Both the position numbers and the translations under genes were made by a program. Of a DNA stretch of 11,503 nucleotides, positions 9,628-11,503 are shown piece after piece (position 1 is the first letter of the stretch; every line of letters begins with the position of its first letter). Source of the DNA: a virus. The notes under the pieces were generated by a model. That model was not told the origin of the DNA, ran no database searches, and was given only the letters and a program-made list of their open reading frames with translations. The stretch lies in UHGV virus genome UHGV-1556036; one strand, 5' to 3'.

Positions 9628-10277
9628 TGACGACGATTACTGAAATCATCGGACGAGTGAACACGCAACTGGTTGACCCGATGATGGTGCGCTGGCCTCT
9701 GGCTGAGCTGTGTGATTATTACAATGATGCTGTGCGGGCGGTGATTCTGGCAAGGCCGGATGCAGGCGCAAGTCTGGAGACGCTGAATTGTGTTCCTGGT
9801 GCACGTCAGACTTTGCCTGATGGCGCAATACAGCTTCTTGACGTGATATGTCTCAGCGATGGTAGTGCTATAAAACCGCAATCCCGTGAGGTGCTTGATG
9901 CACAGTATCCCGACTGGCACATGCTGAGGGGGAAACCGGAATGCTTTATCAGCAGTGACCTTGCCCCGCGCGTGTTCTGGCTGTTTCCGGCACCGGAGGA
10001 GGCTGTGAGTGTTGATGCTGTGGTCAGCCGCATTCCGGAGGCGGTGTATGTTCTGACGCAGGATGATGACACGCCTGTACCGCTGGAAGAGGCTTATGTT
10101 AACCCGCTGGTTGACTGGATGTTGTTCCGCGCATTCAGTAAGGATGCTGCCGGTGGTGCAGAGTCAGGACTGGCAGCACAACATTATCAGAGTTTTGTTG
10201 AGCAGCTCGGGATTAAACAGGGGGCTGACAGTACATTGTCGGCCCGCAAGAAGGTGTTTAACGGAGGTGAAATGTGA
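9627..10277 (+). CDS. Hypothetical phage structural protein (216 aa)
   Basis: Start overlaps the previous stop (TGATG) and its stop overlaps the fibre GTG start. Lies between the head genes and the tail fibre. No family recognised. Confidence 0.55.
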
Positions 10278-11503
10278 GTGTTGTTGTTTCGGGGACGCTG
10301 AAATCGCCTGATGGTCAGGTTGTATCAGATGCGAACATTACGCTGACGGCGCTGACTGTTTCACCGGATGCACTCAGTGGCACCAGCGCGTCGGCAGTCA
10401 CCACGTCAACAGGCTATTACGGCATGACGATGGAGCCGGGGGAGTATGCGGTTTCAGTGACGGTGAGAGGGAAGACTGCTGTCTACGGACGTGTGCGTAT
10501 TGAGGGGACTGAAAGTACGGTGACGCTCAATATGCTGTTACGCCGCAGTCTTGTTGAGGTGAGCATACCCGGAGAACTGCTGACAGATTTCCGGCAGATA
10601 CAGAACAATGTGGCGGATGACCTTGCCACGATTCGTCGTCTGAACGAAGACACGGCGGTGAAAAATAATCAGGCTTCACAGTCGAAGGAAAGCGCTGCTG
10701 CCAGTGCGAAGACTGCATCAGAAAGCGCGAAGGCTGCGACCAGTAAAGCGACGGAGTCTGCACAAAAAGCCAGTGAGGCTGCAGAGGCGGCGACCCGGGC
10801 AGGTGAGTCTGAAAAGGCAGCGGCAGCAGACGCGAAAGAGGCCAGACAACATGCTGAAACCGCCAGAGTGGCTCAGGAGGCCGCCGGAGACGTTCTTAAA
10901 CGTGCTGAGGCTGCTACAGTTAGTGCTGAAGAAGCCAGACGTATGGCTGAGAATGCACGAGGACCTAAAGGCGATACAGGGCCGAAAGGTGATGCTGGTC
11001 CTCGTGGTGAAACAGGTCCGGCGGGTCCGCGTGGGGAGAAAGGTGAGCAGGGAGAGCGCGGACCTCAGGGCATACCAGGCCAGAAAGGTGATACAGGAGA
11101 ACGGGGACCTCAGGGAGTGCAGGGGCCAGCTGGCGCAACAGGGCCATCTGGCCCACGTGGTGCGACCGGGCCACAGGGAGCAATGGGGCCGCGTGGTGAA
11201 ACCGGGGCCAGAGGCGAAAAAGGAGACCCGGGGGGGCCTCAGGGACCAAAGGGGGATGCTGGTCCGAGAGGTGAGCCGGGGCCGAAAGGTGACACCGGCC
11301 CACGTGGAGAGGCCGGACCACCCGGACCACCCGGACCACAGGGTCCGGCAGGGCAAACCGGCCCGAAAGGGGATAAAGGTGAACCCGGCGCAACAGGTCC
11401 GGCAGGTCCCGCAGGCAGTGTCGCCAGTGTTCCGGATGCCAGCACATCACAGAAAGGTGTTGTACAGCTGAGCAGCGATACCAACAGCGATGATGAAACA
11501 AAA
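10274..11503 (+). CDS. stf: Side tail fibre protein, 5' partial (lambda Stf-like N-terminal domain, Ala-rich coiled coil, collagen-like Gly-X-Y domain); continues past the window end
   Basis: GTG start at 10274 with GGAGG 6 nt upstream. Open for 410 codons to the window end, so it is missing from the ORF track. N-terminus [26 protein letters not shown]...[16 protein letters not shown] parallels lambda Stf (VKISGVLKDGTGKPV...GRYSMDVEYGQYSVIL). The closing [16 protein letters not shown] matches the Stf motif KGIVQLSSATNSTSET. Confidence 0.85.
10961..11421 (+). repeat. Collagen-like Gly-X-Y triplet repeat region inside the tail fibre gene
   Basis: About 150 residues of near-continuous [37 protein letters not shown]..., with one register break at [10 protein letters not shown]-rich. 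Confidence 0.85.

Follow-up and report, generated by a model that had tools for sequence, protein, structure and literature searches.

Collagen-like fibres of enterobacterial prophages were described by Ghosh et al. 2012 (PMC3368898), and the gene considered here, which lies at the 3′ end of UHGV virus genome UHGV-1556036 (an 11,503-nt stretch of DNA, referred to below as the window), very probably encodes a fibre of this kind. The region is read as the 5′ two-thirds of a lateral fibre gene of the EPclB kind, carried by a short-tailed lambdoid prophage of Escherichia coli (Sepvirinae, 933W/Sp5/phi24B type). An earlier reading of the letters without database searches (the sequence-only reading) had called the product an Stf-like tail fibre with a long Gly-X-Y domain and had stated that collagen domains are known in prophage fibres, as the work of Ghosh et al. 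bears out.

EPclB proteins consist, in order, of PfN, PCoil, Col, Pf2, Col and PfC. In these fibres, Col lengths differ in steps of three residues and PCoil lengths in steps of seven, and an interruption of the form G-X-P-G-G-P-X-G is conserved. Position X of the triplets is held by Pro (48.1%), Asp/Glu (35.6%) and Ala (10.3%), while position Y is held by Lys/Arg (31%), Ala (21%), Thr (20%), Gln (14.5%) and Pro (7.4%). EPclA is a trimer; Col is a true triple helix by circular dichroism, with a melting temperature (Tm) of 42 °C, and PCoil is a trimeric coiled coil with a Tm of ~50–52 °C (PMC3368898).

The place of such fibres on the virion is known from two related phages. In Sp5, ORF67/ECs1228 is essential, an antibody against it labels the tail end, and the protein “probably recognizes” BamA (Mondal et al. 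2016, PMC5155283). In phi24B, a cryo-electron microscopy preprint (10.64898/2026.04.10.717836) describes six gp61 trimers whose beta-sandwich N-domains sit on the adaptor gp62, with two of the three bound per trimer. The coiled coil of gp61 begins at residue 100 and is visible as a rod of ~20 nm, and a collagen-like shaft is predicted beyond it.

Anatomy of the fibre gene

The fibre ORF (open reading frame) can start no earlier than the GTG at position 10274, because an in-frame TGA lies at 10268. This GTG overlaps the TGA stop of the adaptor gene upstream, an arrangement typical of translational coupling, and the frame then stays open for all 410 visible codons with perfect triplet phase. The extent given in the sequence-only reading, a gene cut by the window end, is thereby confirmed, together with its identity as a tail fibre. 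PHROG tail-fibre families match with E-values down to 2e-131, and the first 131 residues are 91.6% identical to those of the 933W/Sp5/phi24B fibres, whose assignment is experimental, namely phi24B “tail spike” gp61, 933W L0121 and VT2-Sakai H0137. At the DNA level, the gene is 98.6–98.8% identical to RefSeq “tail fiber protein” genes encoding 644–647 residues. Three other ORFs of 178–255 residues cross the collagen DNA, at 10704–11471 (+), 10718–11356 (−) and 10965–11501 (−); they are not taken as genes, since stop-poor frames are expected of triplet-repeat DNA with 68% GC.

Within the product, the collagen domain Col1 consists of 30 perfect Gly-X-Y triplets, an extra Gly (G320), 20 further perfect triplets and a closing Gly, so that the earlier figure of about 50 triplets, with one break in register, proves exact. 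Pfam Collagen (PF01391) matches the domain with E = 1.5e-24, and the longest Gly-X-Y run comprises 31 triplets, as against 10 or fewer in 1000 composition-matched shuffles. Position X is occupied by Pro (48%), Asp/Glu (34%) and Ala (10%), and position Y by Lys/Arg (36%), Thr (18%), Ala (16%), Gln (14%) and Pro (12%), a profile close to the one published for EPclP proteins. A sequence search of the PDB matched the fibre only to generic collagen chains, including BclA, and, through its Pf2 motif, to Mu fibre protein S.

The register break is encoded within a homopolymer of seven G bases (G7). This run is kept in 14 of the 16 close relatives, deleted in another (L006) and replaced by G8 in the last (L017). 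In L017, the G8 goes together with replacement of Pro by Ala at the following codon (GGPQ to GGAQ) and fits a base substitution better than slippage. In the 933W fibre, the same break in the protein is encoded by other codons, without a homopolymer. A role for the G7 run as a phase-variation switch was considered and is unsupported, as the run has a constant length in the relatives that possess it and is absent from 933W. A second feature of the collagen DNA is a perfect 9-nt tandem repeat, CCGGACCAC, in which the window allele alone among 17 aligned alleles has an extra GPP triplet. Such a gain is characteristic of slippage or unequal exchange. Stf-type fibres on other contigs (L007–L010) likewise carry three CCGGACCAC copies.

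Ahead of Col1, the sequence-only reading had placed an Ala/Glu/Lys-rich helical segment. Residues 129–229 comprise 35% Ala, 14% Glu, 11% Ser and 9% Lys, so the richness in the three named residues holds, with the refinement that Ser is as prominent as Lys. Over residues 100–229, Ala recurs with a periodicity of 3.5 residues, which was reached in none of 500 shuffles, and the heptad register is unbroken. A 21-nt tandem repeat, equal to one heptad and present in ~3 copies, lies at 10706–10770 inside this Ala-rich rod and fits the published PCoil length differences in multiples of seven residues. In comparison with 933W L0121, the rod of the window fibre is shorter by 14 residues, or two heptads.

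Downstream of Col1, PF03406 (Phage_fiber_2) aligns residues 390–409 with profile positions 1–20 of 42 (E = 4.4e-5; 23.4 bits against a cut-off of 22). The coordinates of all these features are collected in Table 1.

Table 1. Features of the fibre gene and of the gene preceding it, in window positions
Feature	Position	Strand	Details
Lateral tail fibre gene, 5′ part	10274..11503	+	410 codons; gene runs past window end
PfN beta-sandwich, virion-docking domain	10274..10567	+	residues 1–98
PCoil heptad coiled-coil rod	10568..10960	+	residues 99–229; ~19 nm; from composition and periodicity
Col1 collagen triple-helix domain	10961..11416	+	residues 230–381 (152 residues); ~44 nm at 0.288 nm/residue
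Extra Gly320 (GDP-G-GPQ; G-D-P-G-G-P-Q-G, residues 317–324)	codon 11231–11233	+	in G7 homopolymer 11230..11236
Perfect 9-nt tandem repeat CCGGACCAC x3 (GPP-GPP-GPQ)	11313..11339	+	Tandem Repeats Finder: 3.0 copies, 100% matches
Non-collagen linker and start of Pf2 “phage tail fibre repeat”	11417..11503	+	residues 382–410; cut by window end
Tail adaptor gene (SU10_adaptor / DUF6682)	9627..10277	+	PF24175, E = 8.5e-32; RefSeq “phage adaptor protein”
Shine-Dalgarno sequence GGAGGTG	10263..10269	+	4 nt 5′ of GTG start; read directly from the sequence

Virion genes and the probable docking domain

The window encodes, in order, Rz with an embedded Rz1, TerS, TerL, a P22-like portal, an unknown head protein and an N4-gp56-like major capsid protein, followed by three small virion proteins, an SU10-type adaptor (DUF6682) and the fibre. 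All of the structural genes upstream of the fibre are full length, and no tail-tube, tape-measure or J-like genes are present in the window. Since genes for a P22-like portal, an N4-gp56-like capsid and an SU10-type adaptor precede it, the fibre is read as a lateral fibre of a short tail rather than as a lambda-type side fibre. Of the label “Stf-like”, the homology of the N-domain is therefore retained, while the product is placed on a short-tailed lambdoid phage.

The same order of P22_portal, Phage_capsid_3 and SU10_adaptor genes ahead of the fibre is found in 933W, GER2, PhiR5_2 and RefSeq prophages. A megablast comparison of the fibre and the whole window covered 5,426 complete E. coli genomes and 50,697 phage records. 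Prophages in E. coli chromosomes are 99% identical to the window as a whole. Among phages, GER2 and PhiR5_2 match the fibre DNA, and its first ~530 nt are matched by 933W, VT2-Sakai, Min27 and ~180 other Shiga-toxin (Stx)-type phages. GER2 and 933W, the two records whose taxonomy was read, are Sepvirinae. The element is a short-tailed lambdoid E. coli prophage of the Shiga-toxin-phage type, where the type is read from the virion genes and not from stx.

By analogy with phi24B, the adaptor encoded at 9627–10277 is the probable docking partner of the fibre N-domain, and the numbering in that phage (gp62 beside the fibre gp61) suggests the same adjacency of adaptor and fibre. One of the phi24B contact residues, K67, is kept in the window fibre, and another, K65, is replaced by Arg.

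The N-domain itself scores 33.2 bits with PF13620 (CarboxypepD_reg), which is above the cut-off for that family. With PF08400 (phage_tail_N), it scores 17.8 bits (E = 0.0034), below the gathering threshold of 26.6 bits; relatives score 25.8–28.8 bits and the 933W fibre 17.3 bits. Among phage records, N-domains of the SVVVSG(TLK) type were found only in phages named as Stx-converting, Escherichia, Enterobacteria or Shigella phages (186 matching records).

The proposed homology of the N-terminus with lambda Stf is remote yet real. Pairwise BLASTP against lambda orf-401 was blind to the N-domain and aligned only the Pf2 motif (E = 8e-6). Profile comparisons recovered the relationship in both directions: phrog_3279, the best family of lambda orf-401 (E = 1e-130), matches residues 1–122 of the fibre with E = 1.3e-40, and phrog_366, the best family of the fibre, matches lambda orf-401 with E = 6e-59. 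When residues 1–140 were searched by phmmer against PDB sequences, the best chain was 9e7m_Ta (E = 0.0014), which represents lambda Stf residues 1–94 in the Ur-lambda tail-tip structure. An AlphaFold2 model of the same residues has a mean predicted local distance difference test (pLDDT) score of 77, with values of 82–97 over most of residues 1–90, and consists of a beta-sandwich of seven strands followed by a helix from residue 100. Foldseek again placed 9e7m_Ta at the top for this model (E = 3e-5; template-modelling score on the target, TM(target), 0.79; root-mean-square deviation 1.9 Å over 86 columns; 30% identity), and the next matches were transthyretin-like domains of carboxypeptidase D. 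The fibre N-domain is thus an Stf-N/CarboxypepD_reg-type sandwich of a distinct subtype.

Two side observations concern the start of the window. An ORF of 61 residues at 488–673 (+), with the lipobox VSAC, lies in the +1 frame inside Rz (268–735) and is most likely the embedded o-spanin Rz1. TerL, at 1869–3575 (+), encodes 568 residues and has no Pfam match at E ≤ 0.01, with strong matches to PHROG terminases.

Allelic variation and the distal module

An identical fibre allele was not found by megablast, where the best matches were 98.6–99.4% identical, nor among contigs encoding an identical adaptor protein (10 places), where the best was 98.8%. An exact 103-nt allele-specific pattern had zero matches in IMG/VR or JGI metagenomes, and a 35-nt pattern matched only Stf-type fibres of other prophages. 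A homologue search with the 410-residue fragment was swamped by collagen words and serves only as a rough census: its best full-coverage matches were 66–72% identical, and RefSeq proteins with 98% identity were missed.

The closest alleles, L003 and L021, encode proteins of 647 and 644 residues and are separated from the window allele by one 9-nt gap at 98.6–98.8% DNA identity. Relatives in general are ~96–99% identical in aligned DNA, with intact fibres of 625–677 residues. When Col1 triplets were counted alike in all alleles (full triplets, with the extra and closing Gly excluded), the window allele had 50 and the relatives 43, 49, 52, 54, 56 or 59. Indels in intact relatives are always whole triplets. 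The suggestion that repeat length varies between strains thus holds; the effect on host range proposed in the same reading is conjectural.

Disrupted fibre loci occur in three of the 16 close relatives. In L006, the gene (4001–5458) is an annotated pseudogene without a C-terminus; it also has an in-frame deletion of 22 residues, equal to seven triplets plus the extra Gly, which leaves an uninterrupted repeat. L016 carries a +1 frameshift from an added A in an A-run at nt 1057 of the gene, and L013 has an altered and shortened C-terminus. Separately, GER2 and two chromosomal relatives have an IS21-family element (IstA/IstB) between the capsid gene and those for the small virion proteins (L002, 2449–4250; L014, 3096–4897; L016, ~3875–4888), and the prophage copies bearing it may be defective.

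The relatives also indicate what follows in a complete gene. All intact relatives have the whole 42-residue Pf2 motif and a second collagen domain, with the order after Col1 being the remainder of Pf2, a short coil, the second collagen segment (23–39 triplets by regular-expression count) and a C-terminal globular domain. This last domain, presumably the receptor-binding one, is of at least three types, ending in ...LFQRAY, ...LFQRIA or ...LFQRIV (L001–L005, L015–L022). Two of the types, scanned alone (94 and 106 residues), had no Pfam match, and a Pfam scan of full-length relatives gave no match over the C-terminus. The C-terminus of 933W L0121 is a PfC domain (PF06820, E = 4.9e-35), from which the C-domains of the relatives all differ. 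A gene for a DUF4376 protein of 190–197 residues begins within ~12–20 nt of the 3′ end of the fibre gene in relatives and is labelled “tail fiber assembly protein” in PhiR5_2.

Farther along, ~0.8 kb 3′ of the fibre/DUF4376 pair, relatives carry a gene with a YadA-type anchor (PF03895) and a variable length of 318–437 residues. It is located at 7350–8627 in L003 and 7280–8560 in L004, with equivalents in L005, L006, L013 and L015–L022. The gene resembles trimeric-autotransporter cargo within the virion module and is labelled “adhesin” in GER2.

The distal end of the window fibre is shared with fibres of another kind. Over its last 229 nt, DNA identity with Stf-type collagen fibres on IMG/VR contigs reaches 99.1%, and its final 76 residues, including the GPP-GPP-GPQ repeat and the Pf2 motif, recur unchanged in L007 and L010. 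Those Stf-type fibres begin with MTVRISGVLKDG..., match PF08400 with E = 1.6e-42 and have 493 residues with Col domains of 106 and 102 residues, figures that agree with the ED1a EPclC entry in Table 3 of PMC3368898. In a sensitive blastn comparison with L010 (IMGVR_UViG_643348545_000013), similarity starts at 11234, right after the break codon, a boundary that comes from one pairwise alignment. Moreover, the ...LFQRAY domain is common to L007, L010 and the nearest full-length relatives of the window gene, so the lineage has the look of a composite, EPclB in its proximal half and EPclC-like in its distal half. Judged from sequence, strict membership of the full protein in EPclB is doubtful, and such a hybrid is more likely. 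That phi24B-type and lambda-type fibres have shaft and C-domain in common has been pointed out in the phi24B preprint (10.64898/2026.04.10.717836).

A wider proposal is tentative and on balance doubtful: the interruption would mark the proximal edge of a portable distal cassette that is swapped between the fibres of short- and long-tailed prophages, with slippage in the 9-nt repeat tuning the length and reach of the shaft. The cassette may run from the end of Col1 through Pf2, Col2 and the receptor-binding domain to the chaperone-like DUF4376 gene.

Function, alternatives and known systems

If the fibre works as its homologues suggest, it would be a homotrimer, with six trimers around the short tail as in phi24B. 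Two of the three N-terminal sandwiches of each trimer would dock on a dodecameric adaptor ring, encoded here by the gene at 9627–10277. From residue ~100, the chains would wind into an Ala-rich coiled coil of ~19 nm and then into a collagen triple helix of ~44 nm, which together would make a long flexible spacer, ~60 nm of it encoded within the window. The helix would be stabilized, in the absence of hydroxyproline, by Pro at X and by charged pairs of Asp/Glu at X with Lys/Arg at Y, and the extra Gly would interrupt it and probably kink it locally. If the gene resembles its intact relatives, the part beyond the window would complete Pf2 and add a short coil, a collagen segment of 23–39 triplets and a C-domain of ~95–105 residues. 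This C-domain would nucleate trimerization from the C-terminus and mediate initial, probably reversible, binding to the host surface. At the DNA level, the triplet repeats would gain or lose whole triplets and allow exchange of the distal cassette with the Stf-type fibres of long-tailed prophages. The anatomy, homology, synteny, length polymorphism and shared distal module are seen in the sequences themselves. The trimer, the triple helix, the coiled coil, the tail location and essentiality in Sp5 were established by others on homologues and are carried over by analogy; all that lies beyond codon 410, as well as the receptor, is likewise extrapolated.

Several points weigh against assigning the gene to an EPclB-kind lateral fibre. 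The gene is cut at codon 410, which places the second collagen segment, the C-domain and the chaperone gene of this allele outside the view. The experiments all concern homologues, and recombinant EPclB aggregated, so the biophysics rests mostly on EPclA (PMC3368898). The C-domains of relatives differ from the PfC of 933W; therefore a receptor is not transferable from 933W or phi24B, and even in phi24B the receptor of the fibre is disputed (10.64898/2026.04.10.717836). Finally, the exact allele was not found elsewhere and three of 16 relatives are disrupted, so that a defect downstream is possible, though not expected.

This last point leads to an explanation in which the allele has decayed in a defective prophage, with a frameshift, truncation or insertion beyond the window and no functional fibre. 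Such decay is unlikely for the window allele. It has precedents in L006, L016 and L013, and in the IS21 insertions within the same module of some relatives; in its favour, too, are the G7 run and the perfect 9-nt repeats of the coding DNA. Set against these are 410 open codons, a sole length difference from intact alleles that is in frame, upstream structural genes of full length, and the intact state of most relatives.

A functional lateral fibre could also be cast as the terminal receptor-binding protein, one that recognizes BamA (YaeT) and triggers infection. Mondal et al. suggested this receptor for ORF67 (PMC5155283), and gp61 was formerly supposed to bind BamA (10.64898/2026.04.10.717836). 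The role is improbable here. According to the authors of the phi24B preprint (10.64898/2026.04.10.717836), a flexible collagen shaft could not pass on the signal, the central needle gp56 is the favoured candidate, and BamA is not used by a lambda phage whose shaft and C-domain are closely related. In addition, the C-domains of the closest relatives of the window gene are unrelated to the PfC of 933W.

Far less probable is a lambda-type Stf of a long-tailed lambdoid prophage, that is, an accessory and dispensable fibre at the tail tip. The N-domain is homologous to Stf residues 1–94, Pf2 aligns to orf-401, and the last 229 nt agree with genuine Stf-type fibres, but the gene adjoins a head, portal and adaptor module of the podovirus type, with no genes for a tail tube, a tape measure or a J-like protein. 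The N-domain is of the SVVVSG type, found among phage records only in Stx-converting, Escherichia, Enterobacteria and Shigella phages, its PF08400 score is sub-threshold, and the Sp5 orthologue is essential, unlike lambda stf. The remaining idea, a bacterial cell-surface collagen-like adhesin (Scl/BclA-like) instead of a virion protein, recalls the resemblance of the repeat to bacterial collagen-like proteins and the presence of BclA among the PDB sequence matches, but it can practically be dismissed for a protein with no signal peptide or anchor that is translationally coupled within a phage morphogenesis operon and whose orthologue has been localized to the tail of the virion.

The lateral fibre of a short-tailed lambdoid prophage thus being preferred, its wider interest is that these fibres help to decide which E. 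coli strains are adsorbed to by short-tailed lambdoid phages, including Shiga-toxin-converting ones, and that their shafts provide a published case of thermostable bacterial collagen free of hydroxyproline. The anatomy, composition, interruption, length variation and virion location are all already known from publications, and near-identical genes are annotated in RefSeq. What the window adds is one allele, with a 152-residue Col1 and a unique extra GPP, that illustrates triplet-wise polymorphism and the sharing of a distal module; it raises no new question.

The closest described systems are compared with this allele in turn. Streptococcus Scl1/2 and Bacillus BclA likewise combine a hydroxyproline-free Gly-X-Y spacer with a globular trimerization domain; these Gram-positive collagens, however, have a Thr/Gln-rich Y position, less Pro at X and other flanking domains, and there is no homology outside the repeat. 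Lambda Stf (P03764; orf-401 + orf-314) resembles the window fibre in its N-terminal beta-sandwich, Ala/Ser-rich rod and Pf2 motif KG[IV]VQLSS. It lacks a collagen domain and is a dispensable fibre at the tip of a long tail, whereas the window gene belongs to a short-tailed phage and has an essential orthologue in Sp5. The EPclA/EPclC Stf-type fibres (ECs2717; ED1a ECED1_1681-like, L007, L010) share the interruption motif, GPP-GPP-GPQ and Pf2. They differ in having a canonical lambda-type PfN, a very short coil and a Col1 of 106 residues, in contrast to the SVVVSG PfN and long rod of the window fibre, and upstream of the interruption they are unrelated to it beyond the collagen pattern.

The fibres 933W L0121/Z1483, Sp5 ORF67/ECs1228 and phi24B gp61 share the anatomy of the window gene, with a position directly after the adaptor gene and a succession of PfN, PCoil, interrupted Col1 and then Pf2, which in the window is cut short. 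Differences are seen within this plan. For instance, identity with 933W L0121 is 71% over 427 aligned residues, with a diverged collagen sequence and a Col1 of 157 residues in 933W as against 152 in the window. The gene 3′ of the fibre also differs, being L0122 in 933W and a DUF4376 gene in the closest relatives of the window allele.

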